Positions 50 to 39,281 of a DNA stretch of 39,281 bases are shown in pieces. The stretch is from Barthelona sp. PAP020. Lineage: Eukaryota. Positions within the stretch are counted from its first letter, which is position 1, and every line of letters begins with the position of its first letter. The position numbers were made by a program, and so were the translations under genes. The notes below the pieces were generated by a model that had not been told where the DNA came from, did no database searches, and was given only the letters and a program-made list of their open reading frames with translations. The stretch lies in assembly GCA_040182905.1 (NCBI GenBank), contig JARQWU010000070.1:1-39281 (forward strand), given 5' to 3'.

Positions 50-500
50 AGTTCTTCCTTTGCGTCTTCTTTCGGTGAAATTTTTGTTGTTGCCAAATTA
101 ATTTCACACGACAATAATAATAAATGCTTATAAAGACCTTTATTGTTCTCAGTTAGAATTTGGGGGTACTGGCAACTGAGTCGTTTTGCGTGGATGATTC
201 AGAACACTCTTAAAAAAGAAGAAATATTTCCGGTTTAGATGGGACGGGTATTTAAAGAAAAGTATAATACTTTCCTTCAGCCCCTTGATTCACTTTAATG
301 TCTCCACGTATGTTTTCTTTGTAGGACTTTGATATTCCTAGTTAACCTAATTTATTTGCTTATATCCTTAATCTTTGGATTCTTACGATTACGTTTATTA
401 TTACTTGAGCTTTTCAATTTTGATACTCATTAATATCAGAAATTGCAAGAAGAATCCTTAAACACATCTATATTGTCTTTTACGTGAAATTTGTTCGCTT
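50..500. repeat. Degenerate dispersed repeat, related to 32060-32220
   Basis: Collinear same-orientation matches: ~184-225 TTTTGCGTGGATGATTCAGAACACTC vs ~32116-32145 TTTATGTGTGGATGGTTCATAAAACTC; 404-427 CTTGAGCTTTTCAATTTTGATAC vs 32155-32177 CTTGAGGTTTTCATTTTTGATAC; 459-490 TAAACACATCTATATTGTCTTTTACGTGAAAT vs 32179-32210 TAAACACATTTGCATTGTCTTTTACATGAAAT. Boundaries approximate. Confidence 0.75.
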
Positions 501-2111: not shown

Positions 2112-4679
2112 TTAACTCTTTGAAGAAACTTCAACATCAGGAAATACAATAGAAACAGCTGTATGAACTCTAAAATGACTTGTAATGGAAATATTTCCAC
2201 CAATTTCAGTTAAAATTTTTTTGCATCTGGGCAAACCATAACCAAAATGTCCTTTCTTGGTAGTAAAGCCATGATTGAATACCTTTGATAAATTATCAAG
2301 TGGAATACCTTTACCTTTATCATAAATGGCAATTTCAATAATTCTATTAGCACCCTGAATATTTTCTTTGGCACTGATAACAACGTGTCCTACATCTTCT
2401 GAATTTGGTGAATCTGTGGTATTAACACATGCTTCTACTGCATTAATTAAAACATTGAACAAAACTATTCTCAGCTGTGGCTTTTTTAAATGCGACAAGG
2501 AAAGCCTAACGTCTGAATGATTTTGAACACGTATTATACTTAAAGGAAATTCAACAGCAACTAGTTTTGTCAATAGATCTAAGAAAGAACCTAATTGAAG
2601 GGTATCATCATGTTCTAAAACTGTGTCATTGAACAAATAATCATAGGACATCTTTGCATCAAGTAAATGTTCTTGAGCTTGGTTTATTAGAGTCATATTG
2701 TTCCATAAAGAGCTTAAAAGGTCATAAATATCATCCTCTTTCTCCAATAAACCTGCTAGGTTTTCATCCCTCTGAATTTCTTTTAATAATTCCTTGATAT
2801 CCTTCCAATTATACGAAAGGGGATCAAATCGTTTATCTCCAGTAGCAAATGGAGAAATTTCTTCTGAAAACAATTTGGATACATTGATCAATGTTGAATC
2901 TATGGAACATTGAACCAAATTAAATGTGTTTCTGATCTGATAGCCAGCTAACAGTTTCATTCTACCCAATGATTTTTCATCATGTTGTTTTTCCAAGGTT
3001 TGAATAGTGTTTACTTCCAAACATAAGTCATCAAACTTGATAATGTACCCATAGTGTGTAATAGCTTTTTTTCTATTACGAAAGTCAAATCTATCGAAAA
3101 TAGAGTTAGTTTTAGAATTTATTTCATTGTCTATGTGTTGAGATTGAGATCTTGAAAGTTTTGATCCATTATTATGAGTCTTAGAAGTATTTTTTGAAAA
3201 GGATTCAGCATTATTAAGTGTATTTGCTGTATTTGCTAATGAATTATTCGTGTTCAAATTTGAATTAACTTTTATAGCAGATCTGTTCGTATAAAATAGA
3301 TCTGTAGCAGTATCAAACTTTTCTACTGGCAAAATGTCGACACTGAAATAATGTTTTTTCACATTTGATAAACTATTTAAACAAGGTAAAGCTTCAAGAA
3401 AATATGCAGGAATTGACTGTTCAATATCAAAGATGTTTGAATCACTGTTCACATTTAAATTCCCATTATTACTGTTATCTGTACTGTTTCGCATAAATCT
3501 AACTTCCATATCCATTCGAATGTTAGCAAAATTACAATCTTTTGAGGTGGCAATCTCTTTTAGACGTTGATTCAATATGCTTTTATTCTTGCTATCAGTC
3601 GGTAAAAAATCAGGAAATCTTAACAGAGAATGATTTTGAACATTTATGTTCAAAAGGTAATTAGCAGCTAAATTCGAAAATAACAGCCTAAAATCAGAAT
3701 TAACAATGATAATAGCATTTAAAGAACTGCTTAATAGCAAAGATAAGGACCGATTCACTTTCTTATAGGTTTCTCCATAAATAAAATGACTTCTCCTCAA
3801 TATTATGAAACTTAAGATTAAAACCATTAAAAAGAAGGCAATAATCCCTAAAGTGATGGTTATCGTGGTTGTCTTTACTCTTTGAGGACTTTGTACAGGA
3901 AACTTCAATTGACTCAAAATAATTGTCCCATTTTCAATGAGTTCAGTTAATTTTGGATTAAATACATTGTAAAAAGCAATTCCATTGGCACTATTATTCC
4001 CAAAAGCAAATGTATTAAACTCGGGAGATAGATAAAATTGTCCTTCAACAATTTCTACATCAACTGAAGAATATATCAAATCTATAATATATTGGGCATT
4101 ATAAATATCACAAATAGCAACATCAATACTCTTTGCTACCAATTGTTCTAATAATCCATTTGCTGTGTAATGAAAGTATCGCTTTTCAACTTCTATTTGC
4201 ATACTATCCATTAAAGTTTCAAAGAATTCAGTAAATGAAGCATTTAATGTCAACCCTATTGTCTTTCCTTTGAAATCAAATGGTGAATCATAATTGTCAA
4301 ATCCGTAGACTCCAGCAAAAGTTAATTGGGTAATTGTACTGAATACAGCAAAAGTTTGTCGATAATTCGTGGGAAATAATGGAAATACCATATCAACTTC
4401 ACCTAATTTTAATTTATTCACACATAATGAAGCGGTGTCGACTTGATATTGATATGTATAACTGTTTCCATCATCAATTTTATTTACCGTCTTTAAAAAC
4501 ATTTCAAACATCACACCTTTTATTTCTTCTTCACTAAATACTATCCCATCTCTCGCACTTAAATCATAATTCACGTATGCAAAGGGTGCAAAATCCAAAA
4601 TACATACTTTAATTAATGTACTCTCCACAATATTCAATATCAATATTATAAATATTATCTTATATATCATAAAATCCAT
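2112..4679 (-). CDS. Membrane sensor histidine-kinase-like receptor: signal peptide, periplasmic-binding-protein (SBP_bac_3/PBPb-like) domain, TM, PAS-like region, degenerate DHp, HATPase_c
   Basis: N-terminal hydrophobic signal. SBP-like motifs DFAPFAY, LKLGEVDMV, DFKGKTIG, LVAKSIDVAICD and FNPKLTELIENGT. TM segment TITITLGIIAFFLMVLILSFIIL. PAS-like start LNAIIIVNSDFRLLFSNLAANYLL. N box FNVLINAVEA, G1 YDKGKGIP, F box VFNHGFTTK, G2 GHFGYGL. Confidence 0.85.
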   Translation of the reverse strand: MDFMIYKIIFIILILNIVESTLIKVCILDFAPFAYVNYDLSARDGIVFSEEEIKGVMFEMFLKTVNKIDDGNSYTYQYQVDTASLCVNKLKLGEVDMVFPLFPTNYRQTFAVFSTITQLTFAGVYGFDNYDSPFDFKGKTIGLTLNASFTEFFETLMDSMQIEVEKRYFHYTANGLLEQLVAKSIDVAICDIYNAQYIIDLIYSSVDVEIVEGQFYLSPEFNTFAFGNNSANGIAFYNVFNPKLTELIENGTIILSQLKFPVQSPQRVKTTTITITLGIIAFFLMVLILSFIILRRSHFIYGETYKKVNRSLSLLLSSSLNAIIIVNSDFRLLFSNLAANYLLNINVQNHSLLRFPDFLPTDSKNKSILNQRLKEIATSKDCNFANIRMDMEVRFMRNSTDNSNNGNLNVNSDSNIFDIEQSIPAYFLEALPCLNSLSNVKKHYFSVDILPVEKFDTATDLFYTNRSAIKVNSNLNTNNSLANTANTLNNAESFSKNTSKTHNNGSKLSRSQSQHIDNEINSKTNSIFDRFDFRNRKKAITHYGYIIKFDDLCLEVNTIQTLEKQHDEKSLGRMKLLAGYQIRNTFNLVQCSIDSTLINVSKLFSEEISPFATGDKRFDPLSYNWKDIKELLKEIQRDENLAGLLEKEDDIYDLLSSLWNNMTLINQAQEHLLDAKMSYDYLFNDTVLEHDDTLQLGSFLDLLTKLVAVEFPLSIIRVQNHSDVRLSLSHLKKPQLRIVLFNVLINAVEACVNTTDSPNSEDVGHVVISAKENIQGANRIIEIAIYDKGKGIPLDNLSKVFNHGFTTKKGHFGYGLPRCKKILTEIGGNISITSHFRVHTAVSIVFPDVEVSSKS

Positions 4680-23589: not shown

Positions 23590-26500
23590 ATGCAACAACC
23601 ACCAATTCAACTTATTGAGAAGTTGAACTTAACAGATCATGGAATTGCCCAAGAAAGTATTAAATTTTCAACTGTATCAATGGGACCATCTTTCCTTGTT
23701 GTTAGAAATCAAGAAAATAATTCTATTGTAACTGTTAATATTAATGATTCTAATGATATTAATGAGACTCAAATATCAAAAGATTTAGCTATAGAAGGTG
23801 CTATTATGCATCCCACTGCTCTTCATATGTGTGTTAGAGCTCAAAATAAGGTTCAAATATGGGATTTAAAAGTTGGCAGTCGTTCAAAGAATATTGCTCT
23901 CAACGATTCTGTTAAACATTTTTGCTGGCCTGATCCTCAAACCTTTGCTATTATTACAGATAAAAGTGTGTATCATTGGGGATTTTCGAAAGCTGATCCA
24001 GTTGAAATGTTTGAATTATATTCTGATTTTTGTAATGGTCCAAACAAAAAGATTTTGGACTATTGTGTTGATGAAACAGGAAAATGGATGGTTGTTTCTG
24101 CTATGTCTGTTGATAATAGAATAATTTCTGGGTATATGCAATTGCATTCTATGGATAAGAAAGCCTCTAATCGTATTACTGGTTTTACTGGTACATTTTT
24201 AAATGCTTCAAATGGTGCTCCCGTCTTGTTATTCTCTGAAAGAGTTGCAAATCAACCTTCCAAGTATTCTTTCAAGGTTAATCCATTAGGTGCTTGTGAT
24301 ATTTCCAGACAAGAATTTGAATATGAATTAGGAAAGGCAGATGACACTCCATTTTCTATGTTTGTATCAAAAAAATATCAAATAGCCTTTTTATTTTCTC
24401 GTTTGGGTGAGATACTAATTTTTGATGTTCCTAGATGTGAGTTAATTGCACAAACCACAGCAAATAAACCATTCCCTGTTGCTTGTTCGGATGGAGCTGA
24501 TGGGGTATTTGGTTTGTTGAAAACTGGTGAACTGTACAACATTAAGATTGATGAGAATCGTATTGTACCTTACTTATTATCTGTTGGAAATCAAAAATTG
24601 GCCGTTTCTTTGAGCAGCAGATGTGGATTTGCTGGTGCTGAAACTTTATTTTCACAAAAATTCGAAATGGCTTTCCAACAACAAAATTATATCGCAGCAG
24701 CTACATGTGTTGCTAGATCTCCTGGTGGCTTTTTGAGGAATTCAAATACTTTAAACAGATTTTTACATTCTCCTCAACAACCTAATTCACCACCACCAAT
24801 CTTATTGTATTTTAACAAATTGATTGAAATGTGTGGGAAATTAAACGAAATAGAATCTGTTCATATTGCTGATATTCTATTTGGTCAAGGAAAGAGTGAT
24901 ATTTTGGATAGTATGATGGATAAGGGTCAATTGACTCCATCAGAAGGTTTAGGTGATATCATTAGAAAGAAAGGAGGAATGAACTTTTTGAAATTAGCAT
25001 TGAAAGTTTATAATTTAGCGAAATGTTACAATAAGACAATAGTTTTATTTGCTGAAATGGGTAGATTTGATGGTTTGATTAAATATGCTAAACGTGTTGA
25101 ATATGAACCTAATTATGTTCAATTATTGGAGGATTTTGCTAGAAAGAGTCCAGAAATTATTGTTCCATTTGCTAAATTAATTTTAAATCCAAGTGAAGTT
25201 GATCCAGCTTATACTGAACCTTTGGCTCAACCTTTAGATGTGTTAAAGATCTTATTCCAATATGGTCAAACTATTCCTGCTTCTGAAATGGGTGTTGAAT
25301 TGATGAAATTTGAACAATTTGTTGAAGATACTGATGCCAGTTTTGCATTACAAACAATGATTTTAGAACAGAATCTTTTGGTTGACAATTTCGAATTATT
25401 CAAAAGAATGTTAGAACAACAAGAATTGTTCAATAATTTTGATAAGCCTAAGATTGCGTTATTATGTGAAGAAAAAGGTTGGTATAATCTAGCTTTACCT
25501 TTATGTGTAACCATTGAAGATATTAAAAGAGTGTTAAAATATGCTCAAAACATTAGTATTGATGATTTAAGATATTTCTTCAATAATGTAGCAGATGATT
25601 TGAAGTTTGCTTGTTTAAAGGAAGTAATTTCATTGAACAACCCTCAATTTGCTGGTTTAATTGTAGATATAGCCATCAATAATACTTCTTTAATTGGTGA
25701 AATTTCTTTAATTCCACTTATTGAATCAATGAATCAACCAAATGCTTCTTATAGATATTTATCTACCGTAGGACCTTATTCTGAAGAACCAGAAGTTGTT
25801 TTCAAGTTTATTGAAGCTGCTGTTAAGTCTGGACATATTTCTCAAGATGATTCTTTGAATGCTGTTTTACGTGATAACGATTATTATGATGCTTCAAGAG
25901 TTTGTAACTTTTTAATGGATTCTAAATTACAAGATCAATTACCTTTAGTTATTGTGTGTAATAAACATGGTTTTATTGACAAGTTGATTACTTACTTGTA
26001 TAACAATAAGATGTGGGATTATATCAAGATTTTTGTTCAGCAATATGATACTTCAAAAACTCCTTTAGTTATTGGTGTTTTATTAGATATGGGTGTTTCC
26101 GAAGATTCTATCTTATCTTTATTGAATGGAGTTGATAATGTTAATGTAGCTGAAGTCATTGATGTAGTTGAAGAAAAGAATCGTTTGAGAGTTTTGAAAG
26201 GATATTTAGAATCATTAGTTCAACGTGGTAATACTGATGTGAGTGTTCATACCGCATTAGCAAAAATCATTGTTGATACTAATACCAACGCTCTTGATTT
26301 CATTCAAGAAAATGAATTGTATGATACTCTTAAAGTGGGTACATATTGTGAAGATAGACATCCAAGATTGGCAGCAGAGTGTTATATCAAAGGAAAACAT
26401 GATGAAGAATTTTTAAATATCACATCTAAAACAAAATTATATCGTATTCAAGCAAGAGAAGGTATTCATAGACAAGATTCTGAATTTTTGGGAAGAATTC

Positions 26501-28491
26501 TTAACAATGTTGAAGAAAGAACCAGAGTTATTGAAGAAATAATTTCTGTTATCATTCCAGAGACAAATGATGATCGTATGATTTCATTTGCTGTTCAATG
26601 TTTCTTTAAATATGAATTATTTGATGAAGTTGTTAGAATGTTAGATCGAATTATTTTCCAAAAGACTGAATTCAGTGAAAATTCAAAATTACAGACTGTT
26701 TTGTTGATTTCAGCATTTAAAGCCAATTCTTCTAGACTTGAGAGTTATATTAAGCGTTTGAACTGTTATGATGTTGAAAAAGTCATTAACAATGCTATCA
26801 AAGTTGAAAAGTATGATGAAGCATTCGTTTTATGTGAAAAACATGAACAATATGATACTGCTGCTGATATTTTAATTCAACATATGCAAGATTTAGTAAA
26901 GGCTGAGGAATTTGCTATAAAGATGAATTTACCAAGTATTTGGACTAAATTAGGTGAAGCTAAGTTGGAAATACCAAATATCACAGAAGCTATTGAATGT
27001 TTCTTAACTTCTAAAGATATTTCTAGTTATTTACGAGTAATTGATGTTTTCCGTTCTTCATCAAAGAGTGTTGATGATTATGATGAATTGTTGAATAAGT
27101 ATATCAAATATTTGCAGTTGGTACGAAGTTCGATTTCTGATAACAATGTTGATACTGAATTGTGTTTTGCTTTTGCCGCCTCTAAAAAATTAACAGAGTT
27201 AGAAGCACTGATTAATGGTTCTCATTCAATCAATATTGGTTTTGTAGCTGATAAATGTTTTGAAGATGAACATTATCAAGCAGCTAGAATTCTATATTCT
27301 GCTGATAGAAATCATATCCGTGTATCTCAAACATATTTGAGAATGGGTGAATTTTCTGAGGCTATTGAGTCTGCCAGACTTTCAAATTCTGTCTCTGTAT
27401 GGAGAGAAATTACTTTCAAATGCATTGATGCAAAAGATTATAGAAACGCTCAAATTGCTGCAATCAATATTATCAATCAAGATTCAGAATTAGAAAACAT
27501 TATTCGTCACTATGAAGAGTTAGGATTAATTGAAGAATTGATCAAATTATTAAGAAATGGTGTTGATATGGGACATGGATTAACAACTACAACTGAATTG
27601 GGTATTTTATATGCCAAATATCAACCTGAAAAGCTTGCAGATTATTTAGTTACAAGAGGAACAAGAATTAATGTTCATAGAATGTGTCAAATTTGTGAGA
27701 AGTATAGATTGTGGAAAGAAGTGGTTATGCTTTATTTAACAGATAATGATTTTGATTCTGCTGTTAGAACCATGTTAGACTACCCTGTTGTAGCATTCAA
27801 TCATGAAAAGTTCATTGAAAATCTCGCCAAATGTATCAATACTGAGTTAAGTTATGATGCTATTTCTTTCTATGTTCAAACATATCCAGAATTGTTGTGT
27901 GATTTATTCAATGTGTTGGATAGAGCAGACAGAGGAAGAATGATTGAGATTATTAATGAAAAGGATGCCACATTCTTGATAAAATCTTGGTTACAAAAAG
28001 AACAAGTTGAAGACTTGAGTGTTATCAATGAAGCCATTAATGAGATATATCTAAAAGAATTTGATTATACTTCATTGAGATTGAGTGTTGAAAAATATTG
28101 GAATTTTGATCGTTTAAAACTCGCACAATCTTTGGAAGAGCATGAGCTATTAGAATTTAGGAAAATTGCTAGTTATATTTACAGAAGATCTGATATGTTT
28201 AAACGTTCTTTAGAGTTGTCAATGAAAGATAAAGAATATGCAGATTGTATGACAACTGCAGCTACTTCTCAAGACGAAGAAACCATTTTGAAATTGCTGA
28301 ATTATTTCATTGAACAAAAGGAAAACGATGCTTTTGCTGGTTGTTTGATTTCTTGCTCTAAATTTATTCGACCTGATAAGGTTTTGGAATTGAGTTGGAA
28401 GAATGGTTTGAATGACTTTGCTATGCCTTATTTCATTGAATACATACGTTCAACAGAAGAAAGATTAAAAAAATTGGAAGAAAAAAAATAA
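23590..28491 (+). CDS. CLTC: Clathrin heavy chain (divergent)
   Basis: 1633 aa from ATG 23590. AIMHP, SPGGFLRNSNTLNRF, PILLYF, DQLPLVIVCNKHGF, VHTALAKI, TELGILYAKYQPEKL, LEEHELLEFRKIA, IRPDKVLELSW, DFAMPYFI. Confidence 0.97.
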   Translation: MQQPPIQLIEKLNLTDHGIAQESIKFSTVSMGPSFLVVRNQENNSIVTVNINDSNDINETQISKDLAIEGAIMHPTALHMCVRAQNKVQIWDLKVGSRSKNIALNDSVKHFCWPDPQTFAIITDKSVYHWGFSKADPVEMFELYSDFCNGPNKKILDYCVDETGKWMVVSAMSVDNRIISGYMQLHSMDKKASNRITGFTGTFLNASNGAPVLLFSERVANQPSKYSFKVNPLGACDISRQEFEYELGKADDTPFSMFVSKKYQIAFLFSRLGEILIFDVPRCELIAQTTANKPFPVACSDGADGVFGLLKTGELYNIKIDENRIVPYLLSVGNQKLAVSLSSRCGFAGAETLFSQKFEMAFQQQNYIAAATCVARSPGGFLRNSNTLNRFLHSPQQPNSPPPILLYFNKLIEMCGKLNEIESVHIADILFGQGKSDILDSMMDKGQLTPSEGLGDIIRKKGGMNFLKLALKVYNLAKCYNKTIVLFAEMGRFDGLIKYAKRVEYEPNYVQLLEDFARKSPEIIVPFAKLILNPSEVDPAYTEPLAQPLDVLKILFQYGQTIPASEMGVELMKFEQFVEDTDASFALQTMILEQNLLVDNFELFKRMLEQQELFNNFDKPKIALLCEEKGWYNLALPLCVTIEDIKRVLKYAQNISIDDLRYFFNNVADDLKFACLKEVISLNNPQFAGLIVDIAINNTSLIGEISLIPLIESMNQPNASYRYLSTVGPYSEEPEVVFKFIEAAVKSGHISQDDSLNAVLRDNDYYDASRVCNFLMDSKLQDQLPLVIVCNKHGFIDKLITYLYNNKMWDYIKIFVQQYDTSKTPLVIGVLLDMGVSEDSILSLLNGVDNVNVAEVIDVVEEKNRLRVLKGYLESLVQRGNTDVSVHTALAKIIVDTNTNALDFIQENELYDTLKVGTYCEDRHPRLAAECYIKGKHDEEFLNITSKTKLYRIQAREGIHRQDSEFLGRILNNVEERTRVIEEIISVIIPETNDDRMISFAVQCFFKYELFDEVVRMLDRIIFQKTEFSENSKLQTVLLISAFKANSSRLESYIKRLNCYDVEKVINNAIKVEKYDEAFVLCEKHEQYDTAADILIQHMQDLVKAEEFAIKMNLPSIWTKLGEAKLEIPNITEAIECFLTSKDISSYLRVIDVFRSSSKSVDDYDELLNKYIKYLQLVRSSISDNNVDTELCFAFAASKKLTELEALINGSHSINIGFVADKCFEDEHYQAARILYSADRNHIRVSQTYLRMGEFSEAIESARLSNSVSVWREITFKCIDAKDYRNAQIAAINIINQDSELENIIRHYEELGLIEELIKLLRNGVDMGHGLTTTTELGILYAKYQPEKLADYLVTRGTRINVHRMCQICEKYRLWKEVVMLYLTDNDFDSAVRTMLDYPVVAFNHEKFIENLAKCINTELSYDAISFYVQTYPELLCDLFNVLDRADRGRMIEIINEKDATFLIKSWLQKEQVEDLSVINEAINEIYLKEFDYTSLRLSVEKYWNFDRLKLAQSLEEHELLEFRKIASYIYRRSDMFKRSLELSMKDKEYADCMTTAATSQDEETILKLLNYFIEQKENDAFAGCLISCSKFIRPDKVLELSWKNGLNDFAMPYFIEYIRSTEERLKKLEEKK

Positions 28492-31181: not shown

Positions 31182-31484
31182 CTAAAAGATAATATTGTTG
31201 TAAAAATTGTAGATTTTTTTCTTCATCTTACAAGCTGTAACCAAACATTTATCCAAAAAATAGATTTGTATTTATTATATAAGTGTTAAAGACAGAAATT
31301 TCGCAGAATTTTCAGACAATTGTTTTTTTTTGTTAACAAAGCTGATTTTCTTTTTTTTTCTCAAAGATATCAATCAAACAATCAATTAATTATTAGTGAA
31401 TCAAAGAAAAACATACTATCCAAATAAAACAAAAATGTGTGGTCTTGGACTCTTTTTAACAATTTAAGTTTACTCTTCAATGTA

Positions 31485-31557
31485 TCCGATATAGTCTACT
31501 TGGTTAGGATAGTGGGTTTTCACCCCGCAGAACCGGGTTCGAATCCCGGTATCGGAG
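31485..31557 (+). tRNA. tRNA-Glu (TTC)
   Basis: Acceptor TCCGATA/TATCGGA, anticodon arm GTGGG-TTTTCAC-CCCGC, T arm CCGGG-TTCGAAT-CCCGG, followed by T-run TTGTTTTT. Confidence 0.97.
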
Positions 31558-31585
31558 TTGTTTTTAGTCCCAATATCAAAAGAAA

Positions 31586-31599
31586 GAGGATCGAGTCTG
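31586..31599 (+). promoter_or_regulatory. Putative external B-box-like motif GAGGATCGAGTCTG
   Basis: Identical 14-mer at the equivalent position behind tRNA-Gly. GGATCGAGTCT resembles the B-box consensus GGTTCGANTCC. Confidence 0.6.
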
Positions 31600-31607
31600 A
31601 AATTATC

Positions 31608-31679
31608 AAATTATTGAGACCTTTCACCACACTGCACANNNNNNNNNNAAATTATTGAGACCTTTCACCACACTGCACA
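31608..31679. other. 10-N scaffold gap (31639-31648) flanked by an exact 31-bp direct duplication
   Basis: AAATTATTGAGACCTTTCACCACACTGCACA at 31608-31638 and 31649-31679. Confidence 0.95.
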
Positions 31680-31695
31680 AAAGAATTAACACAAA

Positions 31696-31844
31696 TTCAC
31701 GTTAGGTACAAGAAAAGGTATACGAAAGCTTTTATATACGGTGTGTTATTGAAATGAGTAGTTGGGAAAGCCTTGAATTTGAATCCTGGCTGTTTGAAAT
31801 GACTTAGTTCTGATTGAAAGATTGGACGATATTGAATCCCTAAA
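31696..31844. repeat. 149-bp tRNA-associated element, copy 1
   Basis: 148/149 identical to 39004-39152, in the same orientation relative to the upstream tRNA. Confidence 0.95.
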
Positions 31845-32059
31845 AGAAAAAGAAATGACTTCAATAACTTTGGATAGAAAATTTGATTAAGGAAATTCAG
31901 ACAATGGTTGAAAATTTTGGGAAAATTTCTTTTGTAATCTTTCAAGATTCTTTATTAGCCAGTAACATTAGATTCTTATTTGTCTTAAGCTCAACTAGTT
32001 GTTTTATTATTTGATAAATTCTGAAATACGAGAAATTTTGCTTGATTCAAATTCTGGCG

Positions 32060-32220
32060 CATTTCTTCACGCTTTTCTTTTTCCCTCCTTGTGAAATGCC
32101 CACTACGCTACACAATTTTATGTGTGGATGGTTCATAAAACTCAAAAAGAAATGCTTGAGGTTTTCATTTTTGATACATAAACACATTTGCATTGTCTTT
32201 TACATGAAATCTCTCCGTTT
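32060..32220. repeat. Internally deleted copy of the repeat at 50-500
   Basis: Three collinear match blocks that are adjacent here but separated by ~30 and ~170 bp in the copy at the window start. Confidence 0.7.
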
Positions 32221-32497
32221 TTCTGCAAATACATCTAAAAATATTGGAACTTTTCAGTTTTAATCCGCTTATATCGAAACACAAAACTACAAAAACCAAC
32301 AACACATTTTTTGTACTATTTTATGTGGAATTTGTTTGTTTCTGCATAAAGAATTTTCAACAAAGCAAAGAGATGATAATTCCCCACTAATAATAAACGT
32401 TACATTTTCAAAACATATTTACACAAAAAATTCAATATTTAACATTTATTCTTTCAAAAATATTTTAAAAGTATCAAGCAAACAAACTATTAACCAT

Positions 32498-33325
32498 TCA
32501 AAACGATGAACTCTGCGAAAACAACAATCTTTTTTTGCATTGGGGACAATTTGGCTCCATAAATTCATCGCAAATAATACAACAACAGTTGGTACAAACT
32601 CTTGATTTTGAAACCAGATTACCATGACACAAACAAGGCGGTTGTGCAATGCATTCTGAAACTACAGTGATAGGACAAGTCGTTCCCTCTGTTTCAGGCA
32701 AAAAATGAATCAACATATCTCCCAAATTATGATCAAACATGTGCAACAATTCCCCATTACACAAAGAAACTCCTCTTGCTAAAACATTTTCGGTTATTAC
32801 TTTTAACTGTTGTTGAAGTAAAACATTACATTTTAAGCCACTTCTATAACATAATTCAAAAGCATTTAACAGTGACAAATACTGGTTTTTGTGGATATTG
32901 GTTGTGTGAAAAATGGTACAATATGACTCAACTTTAGGGTTGTTGATTGCATATCTCATTTTCAAAATGCATGCCATATGCAAAGCAGCATCCAAAGAAC
33001 TATAATTTATATCCAGTTCAGCGTTTATTTGGGCAAATTCATTTTCAACATTAAGTCTAAAATTTGAAAAAAAAGTATCAGCGGGAAAAGAGAGATTTTG
33101 CTTTTTTAAATCTTTATCAAAAGATTTACTCAAAATTTTTATATCATTTGAAGTGTAACCAATAAGAATAATCTGATAATTTGGGTAAAAATTGTAAAAA
33201 ATGGAAATGAATGAAAAAAATTCATTCAAGGATTCTCTTAATCTTTCATCTGTCTTAGAAAAATAAATAATATTAATATCTATTAGAAATATATGGGCAG
33301 GAAAGGAAATATTTGATTTTGTCAT
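32498..33325 (-). CDS. TFB4: TFIIH subunit p34/Tfb4
   Basis: vWA-like N-terminus with SSLDAALHMA and QYLSLLNAFE, plus C-terminal zinc finger CLCH...VCTNCCCIIC...CPQC. Confidence 0.85.
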   Translation of the reverse strand: MTKSNISFPAHIFLIDINIIYFSKTDERLRESLNEFFSFISIFYNFYPNYQIILIGYTSNDIKILSKSFDKDLKKQNLSFPADTFFSNFRLNVENEFAQINAELDINYSSLDAALHMACILKMRYAINNPKVESYCTIFHTTNIHKNQYLSLLNAFELCYRSGLKCNVLLQQQLKVITENVLARGVSLCNGELLHMFDHNLGDMLIHFLPETEGTTCPITVVSECIAQPPCLCHGNLVSKSRVCTNCCCIICDEFMEPNCPQCKKRLLFSQSSSF

Positions 33326-33515
33326 GTTTTTCGATGTTAATAAAAAAAATTAAGAAAAATTATCTCAAAGATCAGCAAATATTATATTATCAATTAAAGG
33401 AAGTTATAATTTTCGTTTTTTTTTTTTTAAAAAAAGTATTTCTCGTTGAAAAAGAAGTGAATATAAAAAAAAAATTTTTATCCGTTCATTTTTCTTTTTT
33501 CTTTTGAAATTTCAA

Positions 33516-34736
33516 ATGTCTCATGAAACACAACCACTTGTGAACATCGATCCAAGTGATGTTCTTCTTGATGAAAAAGAGAAAACTAATCCCAATGAAG
33601 TTTACCCTTCTGCTATGGTTTTTACTATGACTATGTTTGCTGGTTATGCATCCCTTTTTGCTTTACAAGGGAAATTATTGGATTTCATTCACAAAGGAGA
33701 TCCTTTATATGTTCATGGTGATTCTGATGTACTTTTTGGTGTTGGAACTTCATTTTTATATTTAGGTAATTTAATTTTTAGATTAGGACATAATGTTTTC
33801 TTCTTTTTTTTGACACCTCGTGAAAGAATTTTTCTTTCTATGTGGGCAATGTTTTTTGCAGAAGTTGTTTTAGTTTATGGATTTATTACCCTTGAAAAAG
33901 GAGCTTATTGGATGGTCTTTTTGGCTTATGGACTTGGTGGATTAGGTATTGGTTGTTTTGAATCAAATATGATTAATATTTGCACGCCTTTAGGTCCTAA
34001 AACTAAGAAATGGGCTGTTTCTGGTATTCCACCAGGAGTCAGTCTTCTTACTGTTGGTTCTTTCGTAGCTATGGTTGCTTTTCCCTCATTAGATGAACAT
34101 GTTGAATACATATATGCCTCAATTGGTGTTCTTATTCTTTTCGGTATGTTTTGCGTGAAATTTAGAATGCCTAATAGAGAAGTTAAAGGACAAGGAATAT
34201 CTTTGACTGACATGAGGAATTATTTAGATGAAATAAAGGACTGGATTGGTCCTGTCCTTCCTTATGCTGTTGCTATGATGTTTAATATGTTCTGTGTTTC
34301 ATTCTTTAGCCCTGGTATTGTGTTATATATCTTTGGTGATAGACCTGTGTTGTTAGATTACGGTATTTTCAGTTTTACTTTATCTCACAATGCTTTTGTG
34401 GCTATTTATAATATCCTTTTCTTTTTAGGAGATTTCTTTTCACGTAGAGTCTTTTTTGACCTTGGAAGACATTCTCCCTTTATTCATTTAATTATTTCTA
34501 CTTTTGGTATCATTTGTGGTTTATCACAATTTGGCGCAATCACTTTATTCTGTGCTTTTGCTGTAGCTTGGGCTAATGGTACCATTTATTGTCAATCTAC
34601 CCGAGAAATAGATGAAAAAGTCCATTCCAAATATAATTTGATTGCCACTTCAATGTTCTTCTTTATTGGAGATTGTGGATCTGTTGTTGGATCTAATTTA
34701 ATCCAAATTGTCAAAAGAAACTTTTTCAGTGGTTAA
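33516..34736 (+). CDS. CLN3/battenin-like MFS-fold membrane protein
   Basis: About 10-11 TM helices, YGLGGLGIGCFESN, and C-terminal YNLIATSMFFFIGDCGSVVGSN resembling the CLN3/Btn1 last helix. Confidence 0.7.
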   Translation: MSHETQPLVNIDPSDVLLDEKEKTNPNEVYPSAMVFTMTMFAGYASLFALQGKLLDFIHKGDPLYVHGDSDVLFGVGTSFLYLGNLIFRLGHNVFFFFLTPRERIFLSMWAMFFAEVVLVYGFITLEKGAYWMVFLAYGLGGLGIGCFESNMINICTPLGPKTKKWAVSGIPPGVSLLTVGSFVAMVAFPSLDEHVEYIYASIGVLILFGMFCVKFRMPNREVKGQGISLTDMRNYLDEIKDWIGPVLPYAVAMMFNMFCVSFFSPGIVLYIFGDRPVLLDYGIFSFTLSHNAFVAIYNILFFLGDFFSRRVFFDLGRHSPFIHLIISTFGIICGLSQFGAITLFCAFAVAWANGTIYCQSTREIDEKVHSKYNLIATSMFFFIGDCGSVVGSNLIQIVKRNFFSG

Positions 34737-35178
34737 TTTTAACATTTTATTTGTGAATATTATTTATAAATTTATTATTTATTTTTCTTTCAATTTTTTG
34801 ATTCCATTGGGCTAATTAGAACTTCAAACACTTTGTCTATAATTTCACATAAAGAAAATCGAAAGAAGAAGACTTAAATTAGAAGCGAAACCAGAAATTT
34901 CATTGATTTTCTTGACACCGAATTTTTGGTACATATTCTTTCACGAAAAGACAGAAATAACAAATAATTTTGGCTAAAAATGCACTTGAATTTATCTTTC
35001 AAATTTGTTCTCTTTTTAAACAAGAAAAATTAATAAATATTTATCTCATATGATTGAATTAATTAATTATATATTTTTAAAAAGAATCCTATTTCTCTTT
35101 GTGTCTTACTTTTAAATTTTTATATATTTTTAAATTATTTGGTCCAGTTGTAAAACTATTATATTTATTTACAAAGAA

Positions 35179-35686
35179 AATAAACTCAGAAAACTCATTT
35201 CCTCAAATCTCTACGTGGAAAATGTGTGGCTGTAATTGGATCTTGCTCATTAAGTGTGAAAATTTTAAAGTTTAAACTTTACTTAAAAGAATTTGAAGTT
35301 TTTCAGCAAATTAATAGAGTTTCAAAAATTCTTTTTCAAATAGACATTATTCTTTTTTATTTACTTGTATGGACAATCACAGTGCTTCTTTTTGAATCCA
35401 TGTGAGTTATCTCCAGGCCAAGAAGCACTGTGCGTATGAGTGAATAAAAAAGAACAGTGTTCATTTGATTAATGGCTTTCGAGGCCGATTGATCTGTTGA
35501 AGAACTTTAGATTTTCTAAAGTAAAGTTTAAACTTTAAAATTTTGCTTTGCAATAATACAAAAAAATATGAATGAAGAATTTCTCCAAAAATCTCCTGCT
35601 TGATCGTTCCAATTACATTTTAGTCCCTCAATTCCCCTCCTGGGATATTGACTGAAATTTGCTAGACAAAGTTTTCTGAGTTTATT
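35179..35686. repeat. ~500-bp imperfect inverted repeat (foldback)
   Basis: Nested perfect inverted pairs 35179-35195/35670-35686, 35231-35240/35608-35617, 35259-35284/35519-35544 and 35378-35390/35420-35432, with a 29-nt central loop. Confidence 0.92.
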
Positions 35687-35955
35687 AGATATTAATGAGG
35701 TATGAGTTGTTCAGTGAACAACGAAACAAGTTAGCTTATGGTTTGGGAAAAACTCATGTTGATTCAGATGCCCAAGTAACTTAAAAAATTGGACCTAAAG
35801 GGGATCAAGAAACAACAAATAACAGAAGCGATATTTGATGACCTCTTTATATCTCCAATAAATTCCGTTCATTAAGCATAAACTTCTACATTACCTCAGA
35901 AAATCAAAAGTTCTTCAACAGATCAATGGGACCTCCAAAGCCTTTAACCAAATAA
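35687..35955. repeat. Left arm of long inverted repeat flanking the kinase fragment and WD40 gene
   Basis: Reverse complement of ~38435-38645 (44-bp perfect match 35830-35873/38452-38495). 35898-35955 matches 35465-35517 and ~38205-38265 in inverted orientation. Confidence 0.9.
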
Positions 35956-35981
35956 GTACGCAGGTCCCGGGACCTGGTCTT

Positions 35982-36256
35982 GATTCTTGGTCATTTGGAA
36001 GTGTTTATTTTGAAGTTATAACAGGAGATATTCCTTTCAAAGAAACTCAAGACGGGGTGGTTAGTACTGTAATGGTTATCATTATGATGAAGTTAAGAAA
36101 GTTGATGGATATGATTTCAATTTCATGTTCTCATGTTTTCATCCCGAAGCTAAAGAGAGACCAACAATGTCAGAAATTGTTGAGTTTTTAATGATGTTGA
36201 TCGTCAATTGCACAAATAATCCTCAAGCTGATGTTCAAACTGATGTTCAACGTTAA
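35982..36256 (+). pseudogene. Protein kinase C-lobe fragment (subdomains IX-XI), frameshifted
   Basis: DSWSFGSVYFEVITGDIPF in one frame and SCFHPEAKERPTMSEIVEFL...TAA in another. No upstream HRD/DFG/APE, because the upstream DNA is repeat sequence. Confidence 0.85.
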
Positions 36257-36850
36257 AATTTTCTTTCAATTACTGATCCAAACAAGTGATCACTATTTTA
36301 ATTGCTTTGTAACAACTATGTTTTGTGTTCTCCCAATGTTGCGGAATTTGTAAATTTTGTTGTTTATTTTTATTTGTTCGAAACGTCTTCCATAACTTTT
36401 CAAACTTGGATCGCTTCAAGGGCCATCTAGAGAAGAGAGCTGACCTATACTATGTGCGAAATCATTACCATAATAGTTGTTCAAAAGAGCAACAAGGCTT
36501 TGCTCTTGACATTTATCTTAAGATTCCTGCTAAAGGAAAATAGAAAGAACAGTAAATTTTGATAGCTTTGTGAACTTTATTGTCTTTTCTTTTTTCAAAC
36601 ATGATGTTTGTTTTTTTTGACCAAAAAACATGGTGAATATAAATAAAGAAATAAAAATAAAATTGTGTTAATTTGAAAAAGAGCTATTGACAAGTTGAAG
36701 CTTGATTTTTTTCTAAATCAACAACTCCATCATATTTATCATTTAAATTTTTCAAACACATTATTTGCCTTATTTTCTTTTGCATACTGCTATCCAAGTT
36801 TCTTCAATCAACAAAAAATCCGAAACATTCAAAAAGAAATTTTTCTTTTC

Positions 36851-38068
36851 ATGTTACTTTTGCAATCAACAGAAGAATTGACAAAAAAAGTTATCCATGA
36901 AACAAACAATTGGCAAATTATTGAAAATGATTCAATTAAAATTAAAGCTGATATCTCAAGTTTTATGACATGCTGTGAATATTCACCAGATGGAAAATAT
37001 TTAGCTGTTGGTTGTAATGATGGAGATGTTTACATCATAGATTCAGAGAATGGAAACCTGATTCAAACTTTAGATACCCATTCATACAAAGTTTGTGCTG
37101 TTTGTGCTGTTGCTTTTTCACCTGATGGACAAATGCTTGCAACTTGTGCCGAAGACTGTTTTCTTGCAATTTATTCCCTTGAGGATTACACCATTTCCCA
37201 TTTTTTTAACTATAGTTCTGTTGTTTTTGATATTTGCTTTTCTCATTGCAGTAATTATCTATATTTTCAGGAGATGGAGGGGGTTCTAACTAAATTGAAT
37301 TTGCATAACTATGAGATGGTCCTTAGTGAAGGAGTTGAAGATAGAGCTGTTTGGAAATTGAAACTGTCTCCAGATGGGCGGTATATTTTAACTTCCAATT
37401 GTGCAACAGCTAAATTAATTCTTGCAAATGATTTCTCTGTTGTACACATCTTCGATCATGACGGTTACATCAGTGTTGTTGACTTCCATCCAACACAAAA
37501 AATTGTAGCTGTTGGGGATGATGCACAGTGCATAAAACTCTATAATACAGAAGATGGATCTCTGGTTCGCTCATTTTATGCTAGTGGTGGCTATCTAAAT
37601 TGTATTAAATTTTTATCACCTTATATCATGCTTGTTATGACTACTGATCACTGTTTAACTGCATACAATTTGGATAGTCTTGAAAAGATTCACAGAATTC
37701 AGTGTTATAGCAAAAGCTCAACGAAAACATTTACGATTTCACCTCAATCAACTCAATTAGCCTGTGAGAATCAATATGATGGAAGCATTGAATTATATGC
37801 AATTATGCGTATTTTTGAAACCCTAAATCTTTCTGGACTCATTGAATTGTCGAAGAATCACAGTGGTGTGCTATTGACTCTTATTTCCATGAAGGAGGAT
37901 TTTAAATTAATCAGACAATTAGTAAGTGGTGGAATTTGCATGAATGAGGAGGAGTTTGAAAACATAATTAACATCTGCTGGGATTTAATTACTGTTAATG
38001 AAGCTAATGGTGGTAATATGCAAGAATTTGTGGAAAAGGGAATTGACATTAGCACTGATGATGACTGA
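36851..38068 (+). CDS. WD40-repeat protein with conserved unrecognised C-terminal domain (paralog of 734-1936)
   Basis: 405 aa from ATG 36851. YSPDGKYLAVG, FSPDGQMLATC and HDGYISVVDFHP are collinear with the 734-1936 product over most of its length. Confidence 0.9.
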   Translation: MLLLQSTEELTKKVIHETNNWQIIENDSIKIKADISSFMTCCEYSPDGKYLAVGCNDGDVYIIDSENGNLIQTLDTHSYKVCAVCAVAFSPDGQMLATCAEDCFLAIYSLEDYTISHFFNYSSVVFDICFSHCSNYLYFQEMEGVLTKLNLHNYEMVLSEGVEDRAVWKLKLSPDGRYILTSNCATAKLILANDFSVVHIFDHDGYISVVDFHPTQKIVAVGDDAQCIKLYNTEDGSLVRSFYASGGYLNCIKFLSPYIMLVMTTDHCLTAYNLDSLEKIHRIQCYSKSSTKTFTISPQSTQLACENQYDGSIELYAIMRIFETLNLSGLIELSKNHSGVLLTLISMKEDFKLIRQLVSGGICMNEEEFENIINICWDLITVNEANGGNMQEFVEKGIDISTDDD

Positions 38069-38199
38069 AAAAATCGACACATTCACTCACAAAAGTAACA
38101 GCTACAAAATTAACAGACTGGAAGACATCAAATTGACATTGTCACAACATGGTCCAATACTACTTCTTATACTTCAGGTGTGGAAAACTTTGGACAATT

Positions 38200-38663
38200 G
38201 TATTTATTTGATTAAAGGCTGTTAACGCCCAATTCATTGGGATTAAAAACTTCAGATTTTCCAAAGTAAAGTTAAAATTGATATTTTATTTTTGCCAATT
38301 AATAAAAGAATAGGAATAAAAAATTTTCATATTAGATCACTCATTTAATTTCATAAATTTAAAAGACTTTTATTTTTTTTTGTTAACTCATCACGTTGGG
38401 GTTTGGTATAGTTAGAACTTTTCGATGACGAAGATGTGGAAGTTCATGCTCAATGAACGGAATTTATTGGAGATATAAAGAGGTCATCAAATATCACTTC
38501 CTTTATTTGTTGTTTCTTGACCACCTTTAGGTCCAATTTTTTAAGTTACTTGGGCATTTGAATCCACGTGAGTTTTTCCTAAACCTTAAGCCCTTAGCTA
38601 ATTTGTTTCGTAGTTCACTAAACAACTTATACCTCATAAATATTTAATTATTTTGTAATTGGA
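38200..38663. repeat. Right arm of long inverted repeat / modules shared with 35179-35955
   Basis: ~38205-38300 is a diverged direct match to ~35463-35560, ~38435-38645 is an inverted match to 35687-35890, and TGTAATTGGA recurs at 38654-38663. Confidence 0.85.
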
Positions 38664-38798
38664 TTAATTGTTTAATTCCATTTTAATAAATAATTCGTTT
38701 AAATTAACATTCTTAATTGTCACATTATTATTATTTTGAAAGAAATCTTTTTTAAAAAGACTTATTTTAAGTATATTATAAAATCTTTGTTTTCACCA

Positions 38799-38869
38799 GC
38801 TTCGTTGGTTTAATGGTAGAATGCGACGTTGCCATCGTTGCGACCCGGGTTCGATTCCCGGACGAAGCA
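38799..38869 (+). tRNA. tRNA-Gly (GCC)
   Basis: Acceptor GCTTCGT/ACGAAGC, anticodon arm CGACG-TTGCCAT-CGTTG, T arm CCGGG-TTCGATT-CCCGG, followed by TTTT. Confidence 0.97.
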
Positions 38870-38896
38870 AATTTTAGCTAAAAAGAACAATGAAAT

Positions 38897-38910
38897 GAGG
38901 ATCGAGTCTG
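38897..38910 (+). promoter_or_regulatory. Putative external B-box-like motif GAGGATCGAGTCTG
   Basis: Identical to 31586-31599, and 27 nt after the tRNA end. Confidence 0.6.
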
Positions 38911-38914
38911 TGAA

Positions 38915-39003
38915 TTCACGTTAGAAGAAAGGGCAAAATTAAAGGCTTTAATTTATATTTACTAACTGGGGTTGGGGAAATTACTCCATGGTTTTCAACA
39001 ATT
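38915..39003. repeat. Short diverged relative of the 149-bp element
   Basis: Same TTCACGTTAG start, then AAGAAAGGG..AAAGGCTTTAATTTATA..GTTGGGGAAA vs AAGAAAAGG..AAAGCTTTTATATA..GTTGGGAAAG. Confidence 0.6.
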
Positions 39004-39152
39004 TTCACGTTAGGTACAAGAAAAGGTATACGAAAGCTTTTATATACGGTGTGTTATTGAAATGAGTAGTTGGGAAAGCCTTGAATTTGAATGCTGGCTG
39101 TTTGAAATGACTTAGTTCTGATTGAAAGATTGGACGATATTGAATCCCTAAA
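39004..39152. repeat. 149-bp tRNA-associated element, copy 2
   Basis: 148/149 identical to 31696-31844. The single difference is GAATCCTGG vs GAATGCTGG. Confidence 0.95.
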
Positions 39153-39281
39153 TTCACTCGACAAAATAATAAACATTGGATAAAAGCTTTTACTGTTCAA
39201 GGTTAGAGTTTGGGTTACTTGTCACTGGTCTGTTGTGCGTAGATTGGTTCAGAACTCTCCTATAAAAAAAAAAAGGAAGGT

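Follow-up and report, generated by a model that had tools for sequence, protein, structure and literature searches.

B boxes lying outside the transfer RNA (tRNA) genes of Dictyostelium are said to have been described originally by Hofmann in 1991 and Siol in 2006. In D. discoideum these external B boxes (exB), to which the initial annotation of the DNA studied here had rightly pointed, lie ~41 bp behind 66% of the tRNA genes and follow the consensus GTTCRAnYC (PMC3159450, excerpt of section 15). In yeast, SNR6 depends on a B box located past its own terminator (PMC13475603, excerpt), and at the extra TFIIIC (ETC) loci conserved bases have been reported outside the B-box core (PMC11724288, excerpt of section 27; PMC3159450, excerpt of the discussion). 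The flanks of dictyostelid tRNA genes also receive mobile DNA, the retrotransposons TRE3 and Skipper-2 inserting in a broad window behind the genes (PMC5006619, excerpt) and forming tandems (PMC5391098, excerpt). The role of external B boxes is not settled in the excerpts on Dictyostelium, the only organism for which our literature searches turned up such boxes behind tRNA genes. Here we describe a 39,281-nt stretch of DNA from Barthelona sp. PAP020 (GCA_040182905.1, contig JARQWU010000070.1, forward strand; hereafter the window), in which tRNA-Glu(TTC) and tRNA-Gly(GCC) are each followed by the same 14-nt motif, GAGGATCGAGTCTG. These are the only tRNA genes within the window, and all statements on tRNA genes and motif refer to these two loci. 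The motif is real, and an exB-like arrangement would be the second case beside Dictyostelium, in a distant supergroup; we present it as a lead rather than a result.

The two copies of GAGGATCGAGTCTG are the only exact ones in the window and both lie on the tRNA strand (Table 1). When ≤2 mismatches were allowed there were still 2 matches (chance mean 0.08; 0/100 shuffles reach 2), and at ≤3 mismatches the same two sites and no others were recovered. As the initial annotation had described, the motif is separated from its gene by 28 nt (Glu) or 27 nt (Gly) and lies beyond a T-run (T5 at +4 for Glu, only T4 at +3 for Gly), and its B-box-like core, GGATCGAGTC, starts 52 nt (Glu) and 51 nt (Gly) after the start of the internal GGTTCGA(A/T)TC. 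The spacing itself stands, while the accompanying remark that it equals about five helical turns is arithmetic on two loci and not evidence. The intervening DNA is unconserved, again as described, the spacers being identical at 13/27 positions when anchored on the motif and at 8/27 when anchored on the tRNA, apart from a common TTTTAG at the terminator. The two genes are unrelated. Among 3802 random intergenic pairs none carried a perfect 14-mer in register (offset ≤3), and a common word of at least 14 nt at any offset was found in 3 of 20000 random window pairs. Upstream of both tRNAs there is a 10/12 match (31448–31459 and 38759–38770, at −37 and −40); a shared upstream element was rejected because 218 of the 3802 random pairs equal this match, which is therefore not significant on two loci.

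The proposed likeness of the motif to a B box was borne out. It fits the general consensus GWTCRANNC (PMC4333407, excerpt) on the tRNA strand, and the fraction of 200000 shuffles of its own letters that did so was 0.00096 on the same strand and 0.0028 on either strand. The pattern GGWTCGANTC, which was written after seeing the sites, occurs at exactly four places in the window, once in each tRNA gene (as its internal B box) and once in each copy of the motif. In tRNA numbering the motif reads G52 G53 A54 T55 C56 G57 A58 G59 T60 C61 T62. The yeast tau-B structure lists the base contacts made with the B box (PMC11724288, excerpt of section 26); renumbered to canonical tRNA positions by our own offset-of-one mapping, these are G52, G53, T55, C56, G57 and C61, and the motif keeps 6/6 of them. 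The sole change in the conserved core relative to the internal boxes is A54, which is T in both tRNAs; position 54 is not a listed contact, and A at this position falls within GWTCRANNC.

The motif regions do not fold (−0.3 and 0.0 kcal/mol, compared with −7.9 for both T-arms), and on the same strand the motif agrees with either tRNA at no more than 8/14 positions. Both a T-arm remnant and an att-type duplication of the tRNA 3′ end were rejected on these two grounds, indicating that the motif is a DNA-level site and not a piece of tRNA. An independent type 2 promoter for RNA polymerase III (Pol III), driving a downstream RNA or a short interspersed element, was likewise rejected, there being no A box common to both loci: an A-box-like 11-mer lies 13 nt upstream of the motif at the Gly locus only, with no counterpart at Glu. 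The A boxes of the tRNAs themselves end 84 nt (Glu) and 82 nt (Gly) upstream of the motif, which is more than the 30–60 bp at which A-to-B box spacing is efficient, yet less than the 93 bp seen in yeast.

On balance, and with moderate confidence, we read the motif as a second B box outside the gene, comparable to the external B boxes known from Dictyostelium, one that would probably hold TFIIIC at the gene. Its sequence, position, strand, consensus match and lack of T-arm structure are observed; TFIIIC, or a diverged barthelonid form of it, would bind the motif via its tau-B module. The distance of 51–52 nt to the internal B box would leave room for two tau-B modules side by side, each covering 40 bp in the yeast structure; tau-B dimers have been reported (PMC11724288, excerpt). 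Because the motif lies outside the transcribed part, the factor bound there would stay at the gene while Pol III passes through the internal box, and once retained it could support reinitiation and an open, insulated locus. If this is correct, a second case of external B boxes would mean that the arrangement either has several origins or is ancient, and comparison of the cases could test what external B boxes do and how they relate to mobile DNA that targets tRNA genes. For the metamonad branch next to Giardia, in which TFIIIC is reported missing, it would offer an entry point to Pol III transcription at the sequence level.

The arrangement resembles that of Dictyostelium in that a B-box-like site stands outside the tRNA genes, at a nearly constant distance behind them (2/2 here), and in the compact AT-rich protist genome with mobile DNA gathered near tRNA genes, although the organism belongs to a different supergroup (Metamonada). 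With Saccharomyces cerevisiae SNR6 (U6) it shares a B box past the Pol III terminator; SNR6, however, is without an internal B box and relies on the distant one, whereas the tRNAs here keep intact internal boxes and the extra box is close (82 or 84 nt from the A-box end). As at the yeast ETC sites, the B box stands alone, no A box of its own lying at a suitable spacing, and conserved bases extend beyond the core; ETC sites, however, have no fixed association with the 3′ flanks of tRNA genes, and the extension here consists of GA before and TG after the core.

Several observations weigh against reading the motif as a second B box. Only two tRNA genes were examined, and the share of tRNA genes with the motif refers to these two. 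The strict Dictyostelium consensus GTTCRAnYC is missed at its first T, which is replaced by A in both copies, and the core lies at +31 and +30, closer than the roughly 41 bp of Dictyostelium; because of the missed base and the shorter distance we class the motif as exB-like and not as the same element. The looser pattern GGWTCRANNC has 9 sites in the window, 5 of them at other, unrelated places. TFIIIC homologs are reported absent in Giardia (Fornicata, the sister group) and present in Trichomonas (PMC3369914, excerpt). A 99%-identical repeat stands behind both tRNAs, which shows that copying of DNA between the two 3′ flanks takes place. Finally, the two copies agree at 14/14 positions, including the six that GWTCRANNC leaves free (canonical 50, 51, 59, 60, 62 and 63), for which the chance of agreement is ~6 in 10000 when calculated by hand from a per-base identity of 0.29. 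A plain B box thus does not explain the whole 14-mer. Judged from the sequence, identity at the free positions implies either an extended lineage-specific consensus, as the second B box would have it, or a common copied origin. Identity between the loci breaks off sharply at 14 nt, and this abrupt loss on both sides favours selection on the site, whichever origin it had.

Table 1. Positions of the tRNA genes, the 14-nt motif and the downstream repeats in the window
Feature	Position	Strand	Remarks
tRNA-Glu(TTC) gene	31485..31557	+	ARAGORN; Rfam RF00005 59.4 bits
Internal B box GGTTCGAATCC of tRNA-Glu	31536..31546	+	
T5 run, likely Pol III terminator	31561..31565	+	
14-nt motif, copy 1	31586..31599	+	B-box-like core 31588–31597
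Two identical 31-nt stretches flanking a 10-N assembly gap	31608..31679	+	31608–31638 and 31649–31679
U2, 149-nt repeat unit, copy behind tRNA-Glu	31696..31844	+	99% identical to 39004–39152
tRNA-Gly(GCC) gene	38799..38869	+	ARAGORN; Rfam RF00005 62.3 bits
Internal B box GGTTCGATTCC of tRNA-Gly	38848..38858	+	
T4 run, possible weak Pol III terminator	38872..38875	+	
14-nt motif, copy 2	38897..38910	+	B-box-like core 38899–38908
U1, 89 nt, begins with TTCACGTTAG like U2	38915..39003	+	Weak homology to first 75 nt of U2
U2, 149-nt repeat unit, copy behind tRNA-Gly	39004..39152	+	
U3, begins with TTCAC, A-rich run at end	39153..39274	+	75% identical to 99–224
Dispersed U3 homolog	99..224	+	No tRNA or motif in preceding 98 nt

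Beyond the motif, both tRNA loci carry repeat units in the same orientation (Table 1). The Glu flank is interrupted by an assembly gap of 10 N which, given the exact 31-nt duplicate on its two sides, is likely an assembly join, and because of it the length of this segment and the distances measured across it are uncertain. U1 and U2 have their first ten bases in common, and each exact site of TTCACGTTAG in the window (3/3) is at most 140 nt away from a tRNA end. U2 starts 134 nt behind the tRNA at Gly and 138 nt at Glu, or 97 nt at Glu if the gap is collapsed. All units begin with TTCAC and have a short palindrome ~25–30 nt in, a pattern written after seeing them. U1 and U2 align with a score of 41, reached in 8 of 1500 null draws from a null that includes self-hits, and U3 aligns with the dispersed copy at 99–224 with a score of 112; pairwise likeness was not significant between U2 and U3 (453/1500 null draws) or between U1 and U3 (809/1500). 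Derivation of all units from one family is thus supported in part by these alignments. A-rich ends are found on U2 (Glu copy), U3 and 99–224, and none on U1. Stop-free frames run on the minus strand through U2 (84 codons, 31700–31951) and U1 (28 codons, 38919–39002), both ending at the same TGA inside the common TTCACGTTAG end; a coding reading of these frames was rejected, with 0 Pfam families found. An integron-like attC reading of the GTTAG junctions was rejected as well (DNA fold z −0.44 and +0.61). The AT-rich stretches that follow the U3 homolog (343–520) and the U2 copy behind tRNA-Glu (32179–32360) are 62% similar, a likeness that hints at a longer degenerate repeat.

The initial annotation had suggested that the motif might be the landing signal for these units, noting that the first of them at the Gly locus begins within 5 nt of it. 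The distance there is indeed 4 nt. However, the motif did not hold up as a fixed landing point: at Glu the TTCACGTTAG unit starts 96 nt after the motif (55 nt if the gap is collapsed), and the U3 homolog at 99–224 follows neither motif nor tRNA within the preceding 98 nt, a check limited by the window edge. Because these distances differ (4 nt versus 55–96 nt), the placement resembles the broad window of a safe harbour more than a fixed point, and the units likely use the region behind tRNA genes in this way and not the motif as an exact landing point. They are probably mobile and a feature separate from the motif. Their placement is TRE3-like, ~15–300 bp behind tRNA genes and stacked in tandem; as with TRE3 and Skipper-2, tandem repeats stand within ~140 nt of the tRNAs and in one orientation at both loci. 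In contrast to these retrotransposons, the units are short (89–149 nt) and show no detectable coding match, no clear target duplication around them and no partner enzyme in the window.

The repeats give rise to the first alternative, in which a mobile element inserting at a set distance behind tRNAs has the 14-mer as its end or recognition site or has left it as a footprint. Later insertions would have replaced the rest of the element, and the B-box likeness would derive from the element. Such an origin, which we consider unlikely, draws on the stacking of repeats behind both tRNAs, with every TTCACGTTAG site close to a tRNA end, on the near-identity of U2 between the loci, and on the compact genomes of dictyostelids, which have tandem-forming elements targeting ~100 bp behind tRNA genes. 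Common descent would account for the identical free positions, and at the Gly locus the motif runs into a palindrome, GTGAATTCAC. However, homology stops abruptly at both sides of the 14-mer, the window holds no inverted or extra copy at ≤3 mismatches, the distance from motif to TTCACGTTAG varies, and the U3 homolog has no motif just before it. Moreover, ~1 in 1000 element ends of random sequence would be expected to fit the B box in the orientation of the tRNA. The specific form of a terminal inverted repeat of a DNA transposon was rejected, as no minus-strand match with ≤3 mismatches was found (371 nt follow the Gly copy).

Rather unlikely, in our judgement, is recognition of the 14-mer by a lineage-specific factor other than TFIIIC, such as a derived B-box binder or a terminator or boundary protein marking the 3′ side of Pol III genes. 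The 14/14 identity exceeds what a B-box consensus needs, both copies have A54 where both tRNAs have T, and TFIIIC was not found in Giardia (PMC3369914, excerpt). Against this, every reported TFIIIC base contact is kept according to our mapping, A54 is allowed by the published consensus, and TFIIIC is the most parsimonious candidate for binding a B box. A wider proposal, which combines a promoter role with the downstream units, appears distinctly improbable. It holds that every barthelonid tRNA gene might be equipped with the same extragenic promoter module of 14 nt, recognised by a diverged form of TFIIIC or by some new factor and perhaps replacing the internal B box, and that an undescribed family of enzyme-less short elements might use the protein bound there to stack behind tRNAs; this would be an independent metamonad invention of the pairing of external B box and downstream targeting known from dictyostelids alone.

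It is very unlikely that the motif acts as RNA, either in the trailer of a read-through pre-tRNA or as the beginning of a small RNA transcribed together with the tRNA. Read-through is conceivable in that the terminator at Gly is no longer than T4 and no further T4 run follows within 120 nt at either locus, Pol III termination needing at least six T in yeast and four or five in vertebrates. The motif regions and units, however, fold as RNA no better than shuffles (z −1.24 to +2.01), a search of the flanks and units against Rfam gave nothing near gathering score (best E 0.74 and 1.7), and the sequence past the motif differs between the loci. Chance or an assembly artefact, which the gap 40 nt after the Glu copy and the position of the Gly locus near the window end might suggest, is hardly credible, given that each copy is contiguous with its own tRNA, that the flanks differ and that none of the random intergenic pairs reached an in-register 14/14 match. 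Of these readings, it is the second, exB-like B box that we favour.

Counterparts were sought in three public collections (viral contigs, metagenomes and prokaryote genomes), and every match to the motif there is read as chance; these collections hold little from this lineage, so that blank scans say nothing about the frequency of the motif. The exact 14-mer was present at 90 loci in viral contigs, 0/90 with a tRNA within 200 nt; a further viral-contig scan gave 4 loci (0/4 with a tRNA) and a scan of prokaryote genomes 8 loci (0/8 tRNA-linked). The combined pattern of B box plus motif was found at 44 metagenome loci (GC 0.42–0.73), 0/44 with the full 14-mer, which we read as chance; in 4 of the 44 the first box lies inside a tRNA, these being GC-rich (0.63–0.70) and again without the full 14-mer. 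Two 17-mers from U2 had 0 matches in viral contigs, and the Gly flank gave one 29-nt match in phages (E 0.03) and none in plasmids. No such motif is reported for metamonads in the literature searched, chiefly abstracts, whose coverage largely excludes subscription journals.

The window has a GC content of ~30%, is dense in genes, and includes long open reading frames (ORFs) for clathrin heavy chain, kinesin and WD40 proteins. From the window proteins the organism is a barthelonid metamonad. Of ten such proteins looked up, four are present in the protein collection with EukProt as their source, and one falls into a 90% cluster together with an entry labelled Barthelona sp. PAP020. The kinesin matches a EukProt entry at 100% identity, the next closest being that of Barthelona sp. 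PCE at 49%. The clathrin heavy chain (23590–28491) is only 24–34% identical to the 9 relatives found, showing the strong divergence of the lineage. Strain PAP020 is now named Parabarthelona vacuolata (PMC13087550, excerpt), and its published genome is compact, with 13.2 Mb and 30.5% GC (PMC11316075); the word 'tRNA' is absent from the main text of that paper.

Behind the Glu-locus repeats, an ORF of 275 amino acids on the minus strand (32498–33325) has a cysteine-rich C-terminus and no Pfam match at E 0.05; the C-terminus is reminiscent of TFIIH subunit p34/Tfb4. A second minus-strand ORF, of 855 amino acids (2112–4679), presumably has a histidine-kinase-like ATPase motif at its C-terminus and possibly an extracellular sensor part, as judged by eye. 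Two paralogous WD40 genes (734–1936 and 36851–38068) have 56% nucleotide identity, and each stands near repeated DNA. A 286-nt imperfect palindrome (35259–35544), 70% self-complementary, resembles a miniature inverted-repeat transposable element, and parts of it recur at 35888–35953 and 38200–38326. Around the WD40 gene at 36851–38068 lies an inverted repeat pair of ~220 nt and 87% identity (35684–35903 and 38419–38648), the second copy of which ends 150 nt upstream of tRNA-Gly.

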